Assembly (NCBI GenBank): GCA_047601445.1
Contig: JASGJH010000001.1
Location: 4,864,001 to 4,928,000, forward strand
Length of the DNA stretch: 64,000 nucleotides
Direction of reading: 5' to 3'
Source of the DNA: Myxococcales bacterium
GTDB lineage: Bacteria > Myxococcota_A > Polyangia > Polyangiales > DASUME01
Shown in pieces: positions 2,702 to 10,295 of this stretch. Numbering within the stretch: the first letter of the stretch is position 1; every line of letters starts with the position of its first letter. The notes under the pieces were generated by a model that saw nothing but the letters and a program-made list of their open reading frames with translations, searched no databases and had not been told where the DNA came from. The translations under genes were made by a program, and so were the position numbers.

Positions 2702-3009
2702 AAAAAGCAGACGCGCCTCGCTTCGCTGCGCCCTCACAGCTCCCTCTCAATTGATAGGAAGCGCGCGCTCGATTGACGGCACCGTGCATCCGATGCTGGC
2801 GCGGCCACGACTTGAACGCCTTTCGGGCGCTGACTGTGGCAAAAAACAGCGGAATTGCGGGTTGGAGAGCTCCGACTTAGGGGATTCTTTCCCTTCTCTC
2901 CATCACCCCGTTTTTTTCTCGAGGCGCCTCATAATCGCCTAGGGCTGACCCCACTCTAAGATACAGGCTCGACACACACAGCCTGGCCAACTTCGTAGAA
3001 GCTACCTCA

Positions 3010-3079
3010 GTCCCGCTCCCCACCCTTCACTTCCCCACCCTCCGATTCTTCCCCCCTGTGTGGGGAGCGGGACGCTTTT
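3010..3079 (+). promoter_or_regulatory. Perfect 14-bp inverted repeat upstream of the peptide gene (structured leader or terminator)
   Basis: GTCCCGCTCCCCAC (3010-3023) pairs with GTGGGGAGCGGGAC (3060-3073), followed by GCTTTT. Confidence 0.45.
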
Positions 3080-3144
3080 ACGCAAAATGTGCCGGCACCT
3101 TCAGGTGCTGATCACGACCGAACCAACCAACCAGGAGAACGACA

Positions 3145-3336
3145 ATGAACGAAAACATGCTGGTTTCCCTTGATGACGCGGCCCTTGAAGACGTGAACGG
3201 TGGCCTCTCGGTCAACCTCGGCGTGAACGATCAGAGCATCGTGTCCGCCAGCCTTGACCTCAAGAACGGCATCGCCGCCAGCCTCAGCCTCTTCGGCAAG
3301 AACCTCGTCAAGCTCAGCCTCAGCATCTTCGGCTGA
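3145..3336 (+). CDS. Double-glycine-leader precursor peptide (bacteriocin/microcin-like substrate of the adjacent exporter)
   Basis: RBS AGGAG at 3133-3137; leader MNENMLVSLDDAALEDVNGG fits the LxxxxLxxVxGG consensus; 43-aa core; directly upstream of a C39-ABC transporter operon. Confidence 0.85.
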   Translation: MNENMLVSLDDAALEDVNGGLSVNLGVNDQSIVSASLDLKNGIAASLSLFGKNLVKLSLSIFG

Positions 3337-3356
3337 TCCTGCCTTTGGCAGGAACG

Positions 3357-3397
3357 CACCGGGCTCACCACCGCCGGCGAGCCCGGTGTTTTCTTTT
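3357..3397 (+). terminator. Intrinsic terminator after the precursor peptide gene
   Basis: Stem CACCGGGCTC/GAGCCCGGTG followed by TTTTCTTTT; a second small hairpin TCCTGCC-TTT-GGCAGGA lies at 3337-3353. Confidence 0.75.
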
Positions 3398-3449
3398 CAG
3401 CGCTCTGAATCTGCGCCATTCTACTCGTTCACCGCTCTAGGCTTTCTTT

Positions 3450-4430
3450 ATGTCTGACCGCGTGATCGTTAGTCTCGCAGCCATCCCTATGATCTCGGGA
3501 GCAGTGCTCCTGGTGGCCTTCCAGCGCGCACCTGCGCTCCACGCGGCCGCTCCCAAGGGACAGCGCGCAGCAGCGGTCGCCGGCCAGGACCAGAAGCACA
3601 GCACCACGTGGGTGGGTGTTATCTCCGCCGGCAACACGGCCGAGCTAGCCGCCGAGGCCGACGGCAAGGTCACCGAGGTGTGGCTCGAGGCCGGCGCTCG
3701 CGTGAAGGCGGACCAGCAGATCCTGCAGATTGATAGCAGCGATGCCGCAGGCGCCCTGGGCATGGCCAGCGCCGAGCTGGGTCAGCGCTCGTCCGAGATC
3801 GCCCGCGCCTCGGCCCGACTCGAGGAAGCCCGCGCCAAGCTCGGCCGCCTCAAGGCCGGCGGAAAATGGATTGCGGATCACGAGATCGCCCAAGCCGCCG
3901 CCGAGGCACGCATGGCCGAGGCGGAGTATCGAGGAGCCCAGGCAGCTGCCCAGATGGGTCGCGCCAAGGTTCACATGCAGAAGAACCGAGAGGCTCGCTA
4001 TCGCTTGCGCGCCCCCTTCGACGGCACCCTGGTGACCTGTGATGTCGACCCCGGGGATAGCGTGCGCGCTGGGCAGGTGCTGGCCCGAGTCATCAGTGAC
4101 GATCGCCAGGTACGCTTCGCGCTGCCTCCCGATCAGGCTCCCCAGGAGGGCGAGTTCGAAGTCCTTGTGCGAGATCCCCTGTCGGACCGCAGTATGATCA
4201 CCAAGATCAAGACCGTGAAACCCGAGATTGATACCTCTGCCCAGCTCGTATTCGCCACCGCGGTGCTAGCCCTCGACCAGAACCAGCTCAAGACCTGGCT
4301 GCCGGGAACCCGAGTGGAAGTGTCGCCTTCGAATCAGGCTTCCGCCATCATGCACAACGAGCAGTTCGCTCCCGTGGCCGCCGGCGCTACCGACAAGCCC
4401 AGCGTGCCCGCCCTGCCGCGAGAGCGGTGA
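3450..4430 (+). CDS. Periplasmic adaptor / membrane fusion protein (HlyD/RND MFP family)
   Basis: N-terminal TM helix, lipoyl half-motifs (GKVTEVWLEAGARVKADQ; LRAPFDG...VDPGDSVRAGQ) and an alpha-hairpin coiled coil. Confidence 0.85.
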   Translation: MSDRVIVSLAAIPMISGAVLLVAFQRAPALHAAAPKGQRAAAVAGQDQKHSTTWVGVISAGNTAELAAEADGKVTEVWLEAGARVKADQQILQIDSSDAAGALGMASAELGQRSSEIARASARLEEARAKLGRLKAGGKWIADHEIAQAAAEARMAEAEYRGAQAAAQMGRAKVHMQKNREARYRLRAPFDGTLVTCDVDPGDSVRAGQVLARVISDDRQVRFALPPDQAPQEGEFEVLVRDPLSDRSMITKIKTVKPEIDTSAQLVFATAVLALDQNQLKTWLPGTRVEVSPSNQASAIMHNEQFAPVAAGATDKPSVPALPRER

Positions 4431-4433
4431 GCA

Positions 4434-5369
4434 ATGGCCACGCTGTTCCGCAAAGAAGCCGTCGAGCATCAGCGCAAGCGCATGGCTGCGCGCTCGGACC
4501 TGCTGCGCATCTCACCCGGCTCGACGGCCTGGATGTTCCGCATCCTGTGCGCCGCGCTGCTGGTCTCGTTGTTCTTCATGGTGGTGGGCAAGCTCAGTGA
4601 GTACGCCACCGGTCCTGCGGTAGTGCGCATCGAAGGTCGCACCACGTTGACCGCGGATTGGCCCGCCCTGGTGAGCAAGGTCCGGGTAGCTCCGGGCGAT
4701 CGCGTCAAGCAGGGTGACCTGCTGGTGCAGTTGTATGCCTCCGAGGAGGCCGCCGAATTCGAGGCGGTCTCGCAAGAGTTCAACGACCAGCTGAGCAAGC
4801 TCCTGAACAGTCCCGACGACGTCACCGCGCGAGAAGCACTGGTGTCGCTGCGCATGCGCCGGGACCTCGCCCGCTCACGCCTCGACCAGCGTTCGCTGCG
4901 CGCGCCCCACGACGGCGTCGTCGGTGACGTGCGCGTGCGCCCGGGTCAGATGCTGGAGGCGGGCATGTCGGTGCTCGAGCTGGTGGGCGAGCAAGCGTCG
5001 GCCACGGTGATCGCCATGCTACCCGGTCGCTATCGCCCCTTGATCAAGTCAGGCGCGGCGATTCGCTTCGAGATCGAAGGTTTCCATCGCCGCACGCAGG
5101 AGCTGGAGATCTCGGGCGTGGCCGACCAAGTGGTGGGTCCCGCCGAGGCGGCCCGCTACATCGGGAAAGATCTCTCCGATGCCTTCCCGGTGCAGGGCCC
5201 TGTGGTGTTGGTACAGGCCCAGTTGCCCTCGGACTACTTCGAAGCGGAAGGAACCCGCTTTCAATACGCGCACGGCATGCACGGCCGTGCCGAGACCGTG
5301 GTGCGCGATGAGCCCGTCGCATACGCGTTTTTGCCAGGGCTTAGACAGTGGGTAGAGCGTGTCTGGTGA
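4434..5369 (+). CDS. HlyD-family secretion adaptor of the peptide-exporter type
   Basis: N-terminal LFRKEA motif, TM helix, VAPGDRVKQGDLL and LRAPHDGVV lipoyl motifs; overlaps the ABC gene start. Confidence 0.85.
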   Translation: MATLFRKEAVEHQRKRMAARSDLLRISPGSTAWMFRILCAALLVSLFFMVVGKLSEYATGPAVVRIEGRTTLTADWPALVSKVRVAPGDRVKQGDLLVQLYASEEAAEFEAVSQEFNDQLSKLLNSPDDVTAREALVSLRMRRDLARSRLDQRSLRAPHDGVVGDVRVRPGQMLEAGMSVLELVGEQASATVIAMLPGRYRPLIKSGAAIRFEIEGFHRRTQELEISGVADQVVGPAEAARYIGKDLSDAFPVQGPVVLVQAQLPSDYFEAEGTRFQYAHGMHGRAETVVRDEPVAYAFLPGLRQWVERVW

Positions 5370-8079
5370 GGCCAAACCTAGCGAGCCCGCGAAGCAAAAG
5401 ACGCGCGTGCTTGGTCTGGGGAGGGAGCGCAGCATCCCGTTCGTTCCCCAGCTCACACCCACCGATTGTGGCACCGCTTGTGTGGCGGCCATCCTGGCGT
5501 TCCACGGCAAGAACATCCCGATCGGCAACATTCGTCAAGCCCTGGGCGGCGGGCGCAACGGCGTATCCGCGCGTCAGCTGGTGCAGGTCTCGCGCAGTCT
5601 GGGTCTGCGCGCGCGCGGCGTGGCAGTCGAGCCGAAGAGCCTGCCTTTCCTGCCCACGGCGAGCATCCTGCACTGGGATCTCAACCACTTCGTGGTCTTC
5701 CACAAGTGCGACACCAAGTTCCTCTACATCGTCGACCCGGCGGTGGGTCGCCGCAAGATCCCGCTGGCGGAGGCCTCCAAGTCGCTGACTGGCGTGGCCA
5801 TCGTGTTGGAGCCCGGCGAGGGCTTCGTGCGCGAGAAGGGCGCCACGCGCACGCGCTGGAACCGCTACAAGGACTGGATCCTCGGCGTACGCGGGCTGTG
5901 GGGGCGCATCCTCCTCACCTCGTTCTTCTTGCAGATGTTGTCGCTGGCGTTGCCGGGTTTGATGGGCGCGCTGGTCGACAAGGTGGTGCCGCGCAACGAC
6001 ACGCAGCTGCTCACGCTGGTGAGCTCCGCGTTCCTCAGCGTCACCTCGTTCTACTTCTTGTCCTCGTTCTTGCGCGCGCGCCTGCTCCTGCACCTGCGCA
6101 CCAAGGTCGAGGCCCGCATGTCGTTCGACTTCGTCGAGCACCTGTTCGCCCTGCCATACTCGTTCTTCCAGCAGCGCACCACGGGCGACCTGATGATGCG
6201 CATGAGCAGCCAGAACGCGATCCGCGAGATCCTCACCACCGGTGCGCTCTCCGCGTTGCTCGACGGCATCATGGTGCTCGTCTACTTCGCGCTGCTGATG
6301 GGCGCCTCGTGGCAGCTCGGCCTGGTGGCGCTCGGCATCGCGGGATTGCAGGTGGTGGTCTACCTCTATGCCGGCAAGAAGAACGCCGACTTGATGGCCG
6401 AGAACCTGGCCGCGCAGTCGCAGCTCGAGGGCTATCAGGTCGAGATGCTGTCGGGCGTCGAGACGCTCAAGTCGATGGGCGCGGAGAACAAGGCCACCGA
6501 GCGCTGGACCGATCTCTACGTCAACGTGCTCAATGCCTCGCTCGAGCGCGGTGAGTTGGGCGTGACTTTCCAGGCCCTGGTGAGCACGCTGCGCTTCGCG
6601 GGCCCGGTGGTGCTGATGTTGATGGGCGCCCACCTGGTGCTCACGGGTTCGCTCTCCCTTGGCATCATGCTGGCGCTGTCGTCGCTGGGCGCGGGCTTCC
6701 TCGATCCCATCACGAACCTCGTGAATACGGGCATGGAGATCTCCCAGCTCAAGAGCTACATGGCGCGCCTCGAAGACGTGCTCGATGCCGAGGTCGAGCA
6801 GAAGGGCGCGGCTTCGAGCCCCACGGAGCTGCAGGGTTCCATCGAGATCCGCAACCTGTCGTTCCGCTATCCCAGCGAGCCCAAGCCTGTGCTCGACGAT
6901 ATCCGCCTGGACATCGGGCGCGGCGAGAGCGTGGCCATCGTGGGCTCGTCGGGCTCCGGCAAGTCCACGCTGGCGCGCCTGATCGCAGGCCTGTACCAGC
7001 CCACCACGGGCATCGTGCTGTTCGACGGCACCGAGATGTCGCAGTGGAACCTCACCTCGCTACGCGAGAAGCTGGGCATCGTCACGCAGGACACGCGCCT
7101 CTTCTCGGGGAGCATCCGGGACAACATCACGCTGTTCGAGCCCACCGTGCCGCTCGAGGCGGTGGAGGAAGCCGCCGAGCTCGCGTGTCTGCATACGGAC
7201 ATCGCGGCCATGCCCATGCTGTACGACACCATGCTGGCGGACGGCGGCACGTCGCTCTCGGGTGGGCAGCGGCAGCGTCTTTCGCTGGCGCGCGCCTTGC
7301 TGCGCAAGCCGAACGTGTTGGTGCTGGACGAGGCCACGAGCGCGCTCGATACGGTGACCGAGCAGAAGGTCCAGGAGCGCCTGCGGACCCTCAACTGCAC
7401 GCGCGTGATCATCGCGCACCGCCTGAGCACCATCGTCGAGGCGGACAAGATCGTGGTGCTCGAGCACGGCAAGCTGATGGGCATCGGACGCCACGAAGAT
7501 CTCTTGATCAGTTGCCCGACCTATCAAGCCTTGATCCGCGCACAGCAGGATGCCCCCAAGGGCGCCAGCAGCTTCGCGCAGCGCATCAAGGCCGAGCGCA
7601 CCGCGGTCTCCAGGCCGCCCACGGCGGCCTCCCCCAGCGCGGCCCCGGCGACCCGAGCTCCCTACACATCGGCGCCACCAGGCATGGACCCCTCCCGAGC
7701 GCCCCTGGCCTCGCCGCACACGCCCTCGCCCTCGCGGGCGCCTCTGCCTTCGCAGCACACGCCCTCGCCTTCGCGGGCACCACTGGCGTCGCCGCACACG
7801 CCCTCGCCCTCGCGGGCACCACTCGCGTCGCCGCACACGCCCTCGCCCTCGCGGGCGCCTGTGCCCTCTCAGTACCCACCGTCCCCCTCGCGCGCGCCAC
7901 AACAGCCCGCGCCACAAGGAGGGTCGTCCTCACGTGCGCCGCAAACCGCCCCTCAAGGGACTCCTCCGCCGCGCGCGCCGCAGTCCGTACCGCCGCAAGG
8001 GTTGTCGCCTTCGGTGCCCCAGAGCGCCGGCCCAGAGCTCCCCGCCGATCCCATCGTGCTCACCCAGCGCAAGCGGTGA
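5359..8079 (+). CDS. Peptidase-containing ABC transporter (C39 peptidase, TMD, NBD) with a Pro-rich C-terminal tail
   Basis: C39 motifs QLTPTDCG, NHFVV and IVDPA; Walker A GSSGSGKST, signature LSGGQRQR, Walker B VLVLDEAT, and IAHRLST. Confidence 0.93.
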   Translation: MSGEAKPSEPAKQKTRVLGLGRERSIPFVPQLTPTDCGTACVAAILAFHGKNIPIGNIRQALGGGRNGVSARQLVQVSRSLGLRARGVAVEPKSLPFLPTASILHWDLNHFVVFHKCDTKFLYIVDPAVGRRKIPLAEASKSLTGVAIVLEPGEGFVREKGATRTRWNRYKDWILGVRGLWGRILLTSFFLQMLSLALPGLMGALVDKVVPRNDTQLLTLVSSAFLSVTSFYFLSSFLRARLLLHLRTKVEARMSFDFVEHLFALPYSFFQQRTTGDLMMRMSSQNAIREILTTGALSALLDGIMVLVYFALLMGASWQLGLVALGIAGLQVVVYLYAGKKNADLMAENLAAQSQLEGYQVEMLSGVETLKSMGAENKATERWTDLYVNVLNASLERGELGVTFQALVSTLRFAGPVVLMLMGAHLVLTGSLSLGIMLALSSLGAGFLDPITNLVNTGMEISQLKSYMARLEDVLDAEVEQKGAASSPTELQGSIEIRNLSFRYPSEPKPVLDDIRLDIGRGESVAIVGSSGSGKSTLARLIAGLYQPTTGIVLFDGTEMSQWNLTSLREKLGIVTQDTRLFSGSIRDNITLFEPTVPLEAVEEAAELACLHTDIAAMPMLYDTMLADGGTSLSGGQRQRLSLARALLRKPNVLVLDEATSALDTVTEQKVQERLRTLNCTRVIIAHRLSTIVEADKIVVLEHGKLMGIGRHEDLLISCPTYQALIRAQQDAPKGASSFAQRIKAERTAVSRPPTAASPSAAPATRAPYTSAPPGMDPSRAPLASPHTPSPSRAPLPSQHTPSPSRAPLASPHTPSPSRAPLASPHTPSPSRAPVPSQYPPSPSRAPQQPAPQGGSSSRAPQTAPQGTPPPRAPQSVPPQGLSPSVPQSAGPELPADPIVLTQRKR
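7693..7899 (+). repeat. Coding 39-nt tandem repeat, about 5 copies (SRAPLASPHTPSP)
   Basis: Units start at 7693, 7732, 7771, 7810, 7849 and partially 7888, all in frame in the transporter tail. Confidence 0.9.
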
Positions 8080-8240: not shown

Positions 8241-10295
8241 TCACCGTGCCGCATCTGCGTCTCGAACGAAGCGCATGTCGATCGACATATCTCGTCTAAA
8301 ATCGAAGAACATCTGACGCACGACGTCCAGCGTCTCAGGCTGTACTCCTTCGGCCCGGACTTCGAGCTCCGCGCTCACAGTGGCCTGGCTGCCGTTCAGC
8401 GCGACCCTGCGGCTCACACGAAAACCGAAAGCTGAGCCTTCGAGCGGAGCGACTGCGCCCGTCCAGTGGTATCCCGCCGGGGCATTCAGGACGTAGCGGA
8501 TGAGATAGCGATGAGCGACGGGGACGCGCATCGCACTCCCTCGCAGCTCCATGAACCCTTTCTTGCGCGCGGCCAGTGCTTCGTCACGTTCCTCGGGCAC
8601 GCGCTCGGCATTCGGCGCGTCGAGCACTCGGCCGGGCAGGTAGTCGAAGAGCGGGGCGAACCCCAGCGAGACCGACCCACCTTGCTCCGTGGCCTGATAT
8701 GCCTTGGCTTGCGGCACATCCACGATGCGCTCGAGGTGCGTCGACGGGTCGTCGTGAACCGTGCAAGAGGCCTGAAAGGTGCGTGCACCGTAGACCCTCT
8801 CGACGTCGGGGCGCATGGCTTCTGCCAACTGCTCCGACGTCTTGTCCCAATCCTCACGCACGACCGAGATCAGAGCCCCGGATGCTCGCGCGATCTCCTT
8901 CACGTGCGCTGGGCCTGCTTGCAAGAAATCAATCCTGATCTCCGTTTCACGGGCGCTCGCGTCCAGCGGCGTGCGCGGCGTAGGCACCAAGTCCTCGGTT
9001 CCTGCAGACACGACGAGGGCCCGACGAGCCTGATCTTGATAGGGGAGCACGTTGGGCGACGCGTACGGTGCCACGGGATCGATCCAAACATCCGGGCTTC
9101 CTGCGATATGCACGATCACGTGATTGAACAGGCCAAACCCCGCCAGATCTGGATACACGTCGATGTCCAGGCCCGCCCGCAGCAACGCCAGGTTGGCCTC
9201 GAAACCGGCAGCGCGTAAGAGCCCTACCAGCAGCGTGCTCTGATCCTTGCAATCACCGTAGAGCCGGCTGAGCACCTCGGCTGGCGGAGCGGGATAGTAC
9301 GCGCGCTGTCCGAACTCGAGCCCGAGATAGCGGACCTTGCTGCGAACGAATGCGAGAATCTTGCGCAGCTTGGTCGCCCGATCGTCTCCGTCGGCGACGA
9401 TCCGTTCGAGCACTTTGCCTGCATCGAAACTCGATAGCGTCGTCTCGACATCCTTGGCGTAGCTGCGCGCCACCGCCTGCCAACTATCGGCGGTGCTGAC
9501 GTCGACGAGTGGGACCACGCGAACTCGCGGGTCGAGGGGCGGCTGCTCGTGATCCACCAGGGAGTAGACTACCCGCTGCGAGTCCGCGTGCTTTTCGAGC
9601 TTGGGCGGAGGTACGCCGCCACGGGTTCGACTGTGCACTTTGACTTGCTCGGGAAATTCCAGAATCAAGCGCTGGAGGGCCGCGAAGCGCCAGTGCCCAA
9701 AGATCACGCGGTACAGATTCCCGACGTCGAAGCGCGGGGCCTCCTCTTCCACCACGATCAATTGCTCCACGACCGCGCCAGGCTGCAGACCCGGAAGCGG
9801 AGCAGCAAGCACCCGGTTGTCGCTGAAGATTCGCGGCTCGCTGCTAGGGACGGCCGACTCTACCAGCCTCGCCGGGTCGAGCTCGATTGCCTTGCCGCCG
9901 GGCGTAACGACCCGCGCGCGGATGGTGGGTCGATGCTCGATCCACGGCGAGTATTGCGCAGAAACCGTGCTCCACTCGTGGCTCGTCAGCGCTCTCGAGT
10001 TGTTGACACGGAAGATCGCGTGGTGTTCCCGAATCAGGCGCTTGCGGCGATCGAAGCGTAGCCTGGTCTGCTCACATAGTACGACGGCATCGAGCCCTGG
10101 CGGCGCTTGGTCTGCGTTGAGCTCCAGTAGCTCGCGCGGCGTGAGCGAGAAGGCGGGCTTGATCAGCGCGTCGTAGACCTCTGGCCGCAGCGCCATGACG
10201 CGGCCAGCAGACGCCGTCTGCAATAGCCCTACGAGGCAGGACAGATACACGACTGGAACGCAACGCTTCAACGTGCGATGGATGGCGCTGCTCAA
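8241..10295 (-). CDS. DUF3857 plus transglutaminase-like domain protein, probably exported
   Basis: GDCKD catalytic Cys motif, FNHVI His, WIDP Asp; VRY..LEFG...Y.P motif; N-terminal hydrophobic signal. Confidence 0.85.
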   Translation of the reverse strand: MSSAIHRTLKRCVPVVYLSCLVGLLQTASAGRVMALRPEVYDALIKPAFSLTPRELLELNADQAPPGLDAVVLCEQTRLRFDRRKRLIREHHAIFRVNNSRALTSHEWSTVSAQYSPWIEHRPTIRARVVTPGGKAIELDPARLVESAVPSSEPRIFSDNRVLAAPLPGLQPGAVVEQLIVVEEEAPRFDVGNLYRVIFGHWRFAALQRLILEFPEQVKVHSRTRGGVPPPKLEKHADSQRVVYSLVDHEQPPLDPRVRVVPLVDVSTADSWQAVARSYAKDVETTLSSFDAGKVLERIVADGDDRATKLRKILAFVRSKVRYLGLEFGQRAYYPAPPAEVLSRLYGDCKDQSTLLVGLLRAAGFEANLALLRAGLDIDVYPDLAGFGLFNHVIVHIAGSPDVWIDPVAPYASPNVLPYQDQARRALVVSAGTEDLVPTPRTPLDASARETEIRIDFLQAGPAHVKEIARASGALISVVREDWDKTSEQLAEAMRPDVERVYGARTFQASCTVHDDPSTHLERIVDVPQAKAYQATEQGGSVSLGFAPLFDYLPGRVLDAPNAERVPEERDEALAARKKGFMELRGSAMRVPVAHRYLIRYVLNAPAGYHWTGAVAPLEGSAFGFRVSRRVALNGSQATVSAELEVRAEGVQPETLDVVRQMFFDFRRDMSIDMRFVRDADAAR

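Follow-up and report, generated by a model that had tools for sequence, protein, structure and literature searches.

In peptidase-containing ABC transporters (PCATs), the C39 domain cuts a precursor after a double glycine (GG), and the ABC part exports the released core through adaptors and TolC. The double-glycine peptides of Gram-negative bacteria have mostly been read as microcins, and the few non-toxin cases, EbfG and the MccAB1 fibres, come from cyanobacteria and Acinetobacter. According to the published descriptions, the EbfG proteins are not antibacterial, have a matrix role and are amyloid-prone (PMC4997328, PMC9981879), and MccAB1 and MccE492 form amyloid (PMC13188072, PMC10233263). 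Here we analysed a stretch of 64,000 nt (the window) from the genome of an uncultured Polyangiales-type myxobacterium (9.5 Mb, 66% GC, a single contig), which carries a short GG-leader peptide gene followed by the genes of two unlike membrane fusion proteins (MFP1 and MFP2) and a PCAT. By analogy with the cyanobacterial EbfG/PteB system, we tentatively read the peptide as a bulk-secreted, unmodified, self-assembling surface coat or matrix material, with a probability of roughly 45%. Positions without a prefix are coordinates in the window; G000 denotes the host genome and C1 its contig, and the other L and G numbers denote other loci and genomes.

The small open reading frame (ORF) is, judged from its conservation, a real gene: it has 12 close homologues in the database, and its leader is under purifying selection, with nonsynonymous differences (pN) of 0.00-0.02 against synonymous differences (pS) of 0.15-0.31. 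The first-pass annotation of this DNA had described the ORF with a ribosome-binding site, a GG leader and a terminator of its own, all of which are present (Table 1), and had made its reading depend on the conservation of the ORF, which is borne out by the homologues and the selection on the leader. The terminator that separates the peptide gene from the exporter genes folds stably (74-nt region, -41.1 kcal/mol, z -5.8, equalled by 0 of 200 shuffles), and its stem is near-invariant in all five aligned orthologous loci; strong terminators follow the peptide genes at 3/3 sites folded.

The exporter genes encode, as had been annotated, two different membrane fusion proteins and a C39-ABC exporter with an intact Cys/His/Asp triad, which we confirmed by domain matches and residues. 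As indicated by hydropathy, MFP1 is anchored by a hydrophobic segment at residues 5-23, lacks a cytoplasmic head and has the longer helical hairpin, and it matches MexJ (E 2.8e-10) and MacA in the PDB. MFP2 has a 33-residue cytoplasmic head, a membrane helix at residues 34-52 and a short hairpin; it scores under the cut-offs of TIGR01843 and TIGR03794, and the PDB sequence search gave no match. In the PCAT, residues Q31, C37, H110 and D126 are all intact, the protein carries the Walker A, signature, Walker B and H-loop motifs, and the Q-C and H-D spacing equals that reported for the C39 domain of ComA (PMC8277102). The length of its C-terminal tail differs among orthologues, the ORFs of relatives coding for 743-830 residues against 906 here. 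Membership in the NHLP/NHLM exporters failed on score (TIGR03796, 626 bits against a cut-off of 853; TIGR03794, 28.6 and 26.9 bits against 156) and on gene content, the locus having a single ABC gene and no second subunit.

The search for orthologous loci with two adaptors and a C39-ABC exporter, together with their upstream small ORFs, which the first-pass annotation had proposed, showed that the layout recurs in related myxobacteria. MFP2 matches 7/9 other genomes of the genus and 9/15 genomes of the sister family, and matches to the N-terminal half of the PCAT were found in 29 of the 301 genomes of the order, spread over three families; the scan of genome contigs gave two true orthologues and the phylum search scored at most five candidates per genome, and neither gives the range of the family. 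We compared 54 surrounding loci, which were picked by similarity and are not independent. Both adaptor types occur in 49 of them (33/37 in one set and 16/17 in another); in the 37-locus set, three misses end at a contig edge and one has no PCAT, and three MFP1 matches are partial. The C39 triad is intact in all 52 loci having a C39 match. LanM, LanB, ATP-grasp or radical-SAM genes are found in nine loci. A clade of 24 rows in the PCAT tree (FastTree support 100) holds the window and none of these nine enzyme-bearing loci; an earlier tree gave the same group as 22 rows with support 100, the trees being built by a quick method and by FastTree. Within the clade, 20/24 rows have a GG gene or array directly ahead of MFP1, and the other four are truncated there. 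Outside the PCAT tree, L166 has a GG gene before MFP1, and L097 has the adaptors with no peptide found upstream. The two adaptors are uninformative on the cargo, because they are common to lanthipeptide, graspetide-like and radical-SAM clusters; they were rejected as a cargo-specific trait, being lineage-wide including clusters of ribosomally made peptides that are modified after translation (RiPPs), and on sequence grounds they mark a myxobacterial exporter lineage and not the cargo of the window. A horizontally acquired bacteriocin island was likewise rejected, since the GC content of the locus is host-like and its neighbours are common to sister species.

The cargoes of this enzyme-free clade fall into four unnamed types, namely the beta type of the window, an Asn-rich type, glycine-zipper helices and a beta-plus-helix type, all of which are amphipathic and near-neutral or acidic. 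The window type has about 30 relatives, with 21 profile matches among 50%-identity representatives, of which six were set aside with differing cores. As predicted by AlphaFold2, the window peptide adopts four strands (residues 20-27, 30-38, 43-49 and 52-59), with a predicted local distance difference test (pLDDT) value of 77-80 over residues 21-60, and the predicted meander is aliphatic on one side and lined by Ser/Gly/Ala/Asn on the other. Beta periodicity with z>2 was found in 23 of 28 window-type cores (2.0 for the window itself) and helix periodicity in none of the 28. These cores have a mean charge of +0.6 and almost no Cys, and an aromatic residue stands in the last three positions of 20/31, against 6.4 expected from composition. 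No core segment in the family reaches transmembrane-helix hydropathy (maximum 19-residue Kyte-Doolittle value, KD19, 0.6-1.5).

No match to any Pfam family at E<=1 was found for the 15 aligned window-type relatives; the window precursor had no NCBIfam match and the family profile had no meaningful PDB match. The fold search of the beta-meander, with a best Z of 4.4, is deemed uninformative because no match reached Z 5 or above, and the first ESM Atlas matches (0.88 and 0.79) serve as leads only; a lanthipeptide, as suggested by Atlas cluster names, was rejected for the lack of Cys in the core and of LanC. The earlier statement that the peptide class is not recognised holds across Pfam, NCBIfam, the PDB and the fold search, and the core match to a well-characterised bacteriocin family that would have spoken against it was not found by Pfam or NCBIfam.

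The other cargo types differ clearly in composition. Specifically, the Asn-rich type, with 34 homologues, has five invariant core Asn residues in 34 sequences, and the amyloid hexapeptide pattern occurs in 33/34 of its cores (mean 2.35 against 1.32 in shuffled cores). Its AlphaFold2 model, with a pLDDT of 55, was set aside, and PDB profile matches to GCN4 fusions were discounted, since they reflect a brief amphipathic segment at the C-terminus. Between the window and Asn-rich types, the alignment covers just the leader and a few residues at the start of the core. The five helical cargoes hold a mean of 5.8 GxxxG motifs, against 1.6 in the 31 window-type cores, and the beta-plus-helix cores have charges down to -9 and an aromatic residue in the last three positions in 8/8 cases.

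The only C39 domains found in the host genome belong to two pumps, both with two adaptors. The second MFP1-MFP2-PCAT operon lies at G000:C1:8273548-8277760 and is 46, 60 and 64% identical to the first, respectively. With the leader profile we found 15 GG-leader genes at 8 sites, a count that omits two further low-scoring rows judged spurious. The peptide singled out by the first-pass annotation is real at its locus, and its scope is widened to one of these 15 genes. The beta type comprises the window gene, a near-identical pair (5456277/5456536 on C1) and a single gene at 7659356; the Asn-rich type forms an array of five genes before the second pump and one of three at 3710592-3711417; the remaining genes are a single Gly/Leu-rich, a single Cys-rich and a single Pro-rich one. 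Gene dosage is seen in identical or near-identical tandem pairs (G000 5456277/5456536; L172) and in arrays, G000 having one of 5 and one of 3 genes and G004 one of 5. The codon adaptation index, computed with a reference set that included a few non-ribosomal genes, is ribosomal-protein-like (0.74-0.87) for 12/15 GG genes, and the window peptide lies at the 82nd percentile of codon adaptation, with the adaptors at the 17th-21st.

Nine of the 15 GG genes are distant from a pump (G000:C1:3710592-3711417, 3741530-3741748, 3943749-3943958, 4099227-4099403, 5456277-5456727 and 7659356-7659571). They comprise Asn-rich, Gly/Leu-rich, Cys-rich, Pro-rich and beta-type genes, of which the Gly-, Cys- and Pro-rich ones are poorly codon-adapted. 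The paralogous Asn-rich operon is present in 2/10 genomes of the genus: at L147 (G000:C1:8271921-8277760) and L098 (G004:C113), the two-adaptor PCAT operon follows five tandem Asn-rich GG genes, and the two genomes agree in having a sigma-54-like motif upstream and in the OmpA/TSP3 neighbour. The TolC that the first-pass annotation had reported missing is indeed lacking from the operon, yet the genome encodes a matching orphan TolC at another site. In the TolC tree, only C1:965403-966953 of the 18 TolC-family proteins of the host joins the TolCs of the sister operons L095/L116 (support 100). It is located behind dnaE, where neither an adaptor nor a transporter was recognised alongside, and judged from its place in the tree it is likely the channel for the window pump.

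Next, we looked for tailoring enzymes across the host genome. No LanC was found there, the same search being positive in one of five other myxobacterial genomes as a control, and no SPASM domain was found. The genome holds a single YcaO-TfuA pair, with the nearest GG gene about 190 kb away, three PqqD domains and 27 radical-SAM matches, 0/27 of which lie within 40 kb of any GG gene. No tailoring enzyme and no adjacent immunity gene were found across the 24-locus clade, and membership among modified RiPPs failed, with no linked enzyme here and all nine enzyme-bearing loci outside the clade. These genome-wide searches and distances bear out the annotated lack of a lanthionine, YcaO or radical-SAM enzyme nearby. 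With no enzyme near and no core Cys, they also support the view that the peptide is probably unmodified and secreted, its cleavage and secretion being deduced from the exporter.

Immunity genes were sought in the same way. The gap between peptide gene and MFP1 is 73-209 nt in 14/14 loci measured, and the 113 nt at the window are filled by the terminator. Known microcin immunity proteins are described as 51-216 aa long (PMC10233263), and small hidden ORFs were screened directly because the MccAB1 immunity gene is reported as a hidden 56-aa ORF (PMC13188072). The screen for small membrane ORFs with a ribosome-binding site at 21 sites gave six matches, each of which is an antisense shadow, a start internal to a gene or the peptide. 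No adjacent immunity candidate was found at 21/21 sites and no small gene is common to the 33 flanks, in agreement with the earlier statement that no immunity gene is evident.

Taken as a pathway, cleavage by the C39 domain would fall after G19-G20, and the core would then be driven by the ABC part through the adaptor ring and TolC. MFP2 would couple to the pump by its cytoplasmic head and MFP1 would help to reach TolC. We propose such a mixed ring because the two anatomies differ (MacA/MexJ-like against a cytoplasmic head with a membrane helix) and because a precedent exists in TriABC, a pump of the resistance-nodulation-division (RND) type. The terminator would give far more peptide mRNA than pump mRNA, and the two pumps would also serve the nine orphan GG genes. 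Once secreted, the sheet would lie at air-water, lipid or cell-surface interfaces, or stack into cross-beta fibres.

We favour the surface coat or matrix material because of the lack of immunity genes, the gene dosage, the terminators, the stable locus, the amphipathy without cationic charge and the precedents of EbfG and MccAB1. Several observations weigh against it. The window core has neither the EbfG hotspot motif nor the GAV motif, and the amyloid pattern is not enriched in the window family (14/31 cores; mean 0.68 against 0.86 shuffled). The core also evolves fast, with pN 0.38 and pS 0.32 against G007 (MFP2, pN 0.08 and pS 0.45), and L166 keeps the leader, the untranslated region, the terminator and an 83%-identical MFP1, yet its core is unrelated; antagonistic peptides usually show such fast and swapped cores. 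Glycine-zipper helices resembling CdzC/D and microcins are exported from sister loci, and immunity may be encoded far from the locus. According to the sources, bacteroidetocins are GG-leader toxins lacking an immunity protein (PMC11901371), and microcins too are typically hydrophobic and neutral or anionic (PMC10233263). Alternatively, the peptides may be microcin- or Cdz-like membrane-active toxins for competition or predation, without a cognate immunity gene. We hold this possible if doubtful, because of the fast, swappable cores, the Cdz-like cargo of sister loci, the immunity-free bacteroidetocins and the lack of amyloid-pattern enrichment in the window family. Its export logic is identical to that described for class II microcins (PMC10233263), core pN about equals pS, and the cargo of L095 shows a weak match to Bacteriocin_IIc (E 9e-4, 19.6 bits against a cut-off of 27.1). 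The producer would escape because type I export bypasses its periplasm and the receptor is lacking in it, or self-harm would be tolerated; self-assembly would be compatible with toxicity, as in MccAB1, MccE492 and CdzC. Such toxins fit poorly with the empty flanks at all 21 sites, as an adjacent immunity gene is defining in class II microcin and Cdz loci, and with the identical tandem copies and large conserved arrays, the stable chromosomal position with host-like GC and a core hydropathy below that of a transmembrane helix. The surface or matrix and toxin readings need not exclude each other.

The four predicted strands of 7-9 residues, with one aliphatic and one Ser/Gly/Ala/Asn face, could also suit a miniature outer-membrane beta-barrel subunit, given the beta-signal and the geometry of barrels: several such meanders would together form a pore, or the last strand, by imitating the beta-signal of the beta-barrel assembly machinery (BAM), would jam BamA. 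We consider this distinctly improbable. The terminal aromatic, enriched in window-type cores and present in every beta-plus-helix core, speaks for it, as do the bacteroidetocins, GG peptides without immunity that are described as acting through BamA (PMC11901371), yet this residue is missing from 11/31 window-type cores, the strands are short for a membrane, and the all-helical and Asn-rich cargo at the same operon position could not act so. Fast core divergence, scattered orphan genes and the sigma-54-like and other conserved promoter motifs would agree with cell-cell signals or kin labels, like the pneumococcal GG pheromones, and the radical-SAM matches, PqqD domains and YcaO-TfuA pair of the genome with modification in trans by an unlinked enzyme. 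Both are most improbable, as no receptor kinase or regulator is conserved next to the loci and 43-residue hydrophobic cores in multiple copies surpass signalling needs, and modification in trans is opposed by the lack of LanC, SPASM and core Cys and of any enzyme within 40 kb. A more specific picture, which we rate as rather unlikely, joins several of these elements: a type I secretion lineage of the myxobacteria's own with two unlike adaptors per ring, whose beta-meander cargo would self-assemble into a membrane beta-barrel or an interfacial sheet and act as an immunity-free toxin or surfactant, cassette-swapped behind a fixed leader.

Table 1 Features of the peptide gene and its two-adaptor exporter in the window
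Feature	Position	Strand	Description
Bipartite promoter-like motif	2928..2959	+	CATAA-W, 15-16 nt, CCAC; common to upstream regions of other beta-type peptide genes; putative function
Hairpin in 5' leader of peptide gene	3010..3073	+	14 bp, pyrimidine-rich variable loop; fold z -3.7
Ribosome-binding site	3133..3137	+	AGGAG, 7 nt ahead of ATG; kept in 5/5 orthologues
Precursor gene	3145..3336	+	63 aa: 20-aa double-glycine leader ending GG and 43-aa Cys-free core, predicted four-stranded amphipathic beta-meander
Intrinsic terminator between peptide gene and exporter genes	3356..3397	+	Stem 3356-3389, then T-run TTTCTTTT
Adaptor 1 (MFP1), RND/MacA-like periplasmic	3450..4430	+	TIGR01730 RND_mfp 98.9 bits, cut-off 94.9
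Adaptor 2 (MFP2), HlyD/NHLM-type layout	4434..5369	+	Pfam HlyD_3 above cut-off
Peptidase-containing ABC transporter (PCAT)	5359..8079	+	Peptidase_C39, ABC_membrane, ABC_tran; start overlaps MFP2 end
39-bp tandem repeat, 5.4 copies	7690..7900	+	Encodes part of Pro/Ser/Ala-rich C-terminal PCAT tail

The hairpin ahead of the peptide gene is kept in 5/5 orthologues with one compensatory pair, and comparison with Rfam gave no meaningful match; it is a possible attenuator or stabiliser. The bipartite motif was seen in 9/11 upstream regions of window-type genes examined and is descriptive, because the pattern was derived from those same regions. The genome scan with this motif gave five sites scoring above 20, three of them training sites, where a shuffled single strand gives 1 per 4 Mb, and revealed no wider regulon. 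The site upstream of the candidate TolC scores 14.4, inside the background, and divergent sites at G000:C1:9230367 and 9230380, within chance reach, lie between two genes for secreted-looking proteins without a Pfam match. The Asn- and Gly-rich GG genes have a common upstream GG-N10-GC motif, which we take to be of the sigma-54 kind; this pattern was built from the sites it finds, gave 3 matches in a reversed control against 4, and is descriptive. No riboswitch reached the gathering score in 10 loci surrounding peptide genes. The flanking genes, a metallophosphoesterase (1091-2701, + strand) and a DUF3857/transglutaminase-like protein (8241-10295, - strand), were left out of the parts of the system because neither is conserved across the clade.

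Additionally, we observed several other arrangements around related pumps. L100:3763-11066 and L124:5472-12209 each hold an ECF (extracytoplasmic function) sigma factor, a GG peptide, a GIN-domain (DUF2807) protein, TolC, a second GG peptide, two adaptors and a PCAT; the first GG peptide has an Asn/Val/Ile-rich beta core with a weak CTB match, and the cluster looks like a two-subunit fibre system. In L096, L099, L117, L118, L120, L121 and L123, the peptide gene is preceded by a conserved Cys-rich protein (about 420-470 aa in the loci where it was called), with a weak Dickkopf_N match in three; it follows an ECF sigma gene in at least three of the seven loci, and four of them have a common 5' leader motif with a TTCCCC loop. 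Tandem Met/Gln-rich GG peptides, helical by eye, lie near TolC and a two-adaptor PCAT at L140:15566-16590 and L143:15261-16335, another myxobacterial family. The same exporter type accompanies L142:7826-12427, where a GG precursor with four TTxxxxEE-like repeats adjoins an ATP-grasp ligase, presumably a plesiocin-like graspetide. In L229-L232, from four genomes of 12-13 Mb, a two-adaptor pump adjoins a radical-SAM gene and short precursors that contain Cys and have long, acidic GG leaders; this may be an undescribed RiPP.

Our literature searches found no description of this myxobacterial system or of a two-adaptor PCAT, though supplementary genome-mining tables could list such loci. On the genomic evidence, the system appears real, conserved and undescribed in the searchable literature, with a new adaptor architecture, new cargo families and a function that is proposed here. 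The locus points to a myxobacterial branch of GG peptides that comprises four or more unnamed amphipathic families, in which a genome can hold up to 15 precursor genes and no immunity gene was found; sources leave such precursor genes unnamed or call them hypothetical. Should the peptides be structural, they are candidate protein surfactants or amyloids for the surfaces and multicellular structures of myxobacteria; should they be toxic, predators would supply in them a new pool of immunity-free antibacterials. With its five genes identified, the two-adaptor PCAT machine offers a testable new type I secretion architecture.

Among known systems, EbfG1-4/PteB/HlyD of Synechococcus elongatus PCC 7942 likewise combines, as described, small GG-leader proteins with a C39-ABC exporter and an adaptor (PMC4997328, PMC9981879), and its tandem precursor array resembles the Asn-rich array of the host genome. 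This likeness is one of gene set and published description. The reported EbfG hotspot A-Phi-N-I-(G/S), missing from the window core, appears partially as LNIG in 4/5 members of the Asn-rich array; there is one adaptor there against two here, the phylum is different, and a single beta-meander gene encodes the window peptide. Class IIa microcins (MccV; MccAB1 of Acinetobacter, PMC13188072; review PMC10233263) likewise have, in these accounts, a GG leader, a PCAT, an MFP, a chromosomal TolC in trans and an unmodified hydrophobic core. The locus shares the GG leader and the PCAT with C39 residues, MFP and a TolC in trans, the last by its probable pairing; it differs in having no adjacent immunity gene, a second adaptor, up to 15 precursor genes for two pumps and a 43-residue core of roughly 4.3 kDa by residue count, against the mature size of about 5-10 kDa given in the review (PMC10233263). 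For the CTB bacteriocin family NF038167 (cut-off 32 bits), the window has no match and the best relative, L100, which lies outside the enzyme-free clade, reaches 28.6 bits.

CdzC/CdzD of Caulobacter crescentus are described as small, type I-exported, likely unmodified peptides that form surface aggregates, and their glycine zippers are like those of the sister loci; Cdz needs, according to the same source, the CdzI immunity protein and two partner peptides (PMC5380434), whereas the window has a single gene, no immunity ORF and a beta-meander in place of a glycine zipper. Bacteroidetocins share with the window a GG leader, a mature peptide of about 42 aa, a PCAT and the lack of an immunity protein, and differ, as reported, in 2-4 Cys, a thiol oxidoreductase and a resemblance to class IIa bacteriocins (PMC11901371), the window core being Cys-free. 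Finally, TriABC-OpmH is described with two different periplasmic adaptor genes per operon, as here (PMC8277102, PMC4446572); TriABC is a triclosan efflux pump, whereas the adaptors of this locus, of unlike types, serve a peptide-cleaving ABC exporter.

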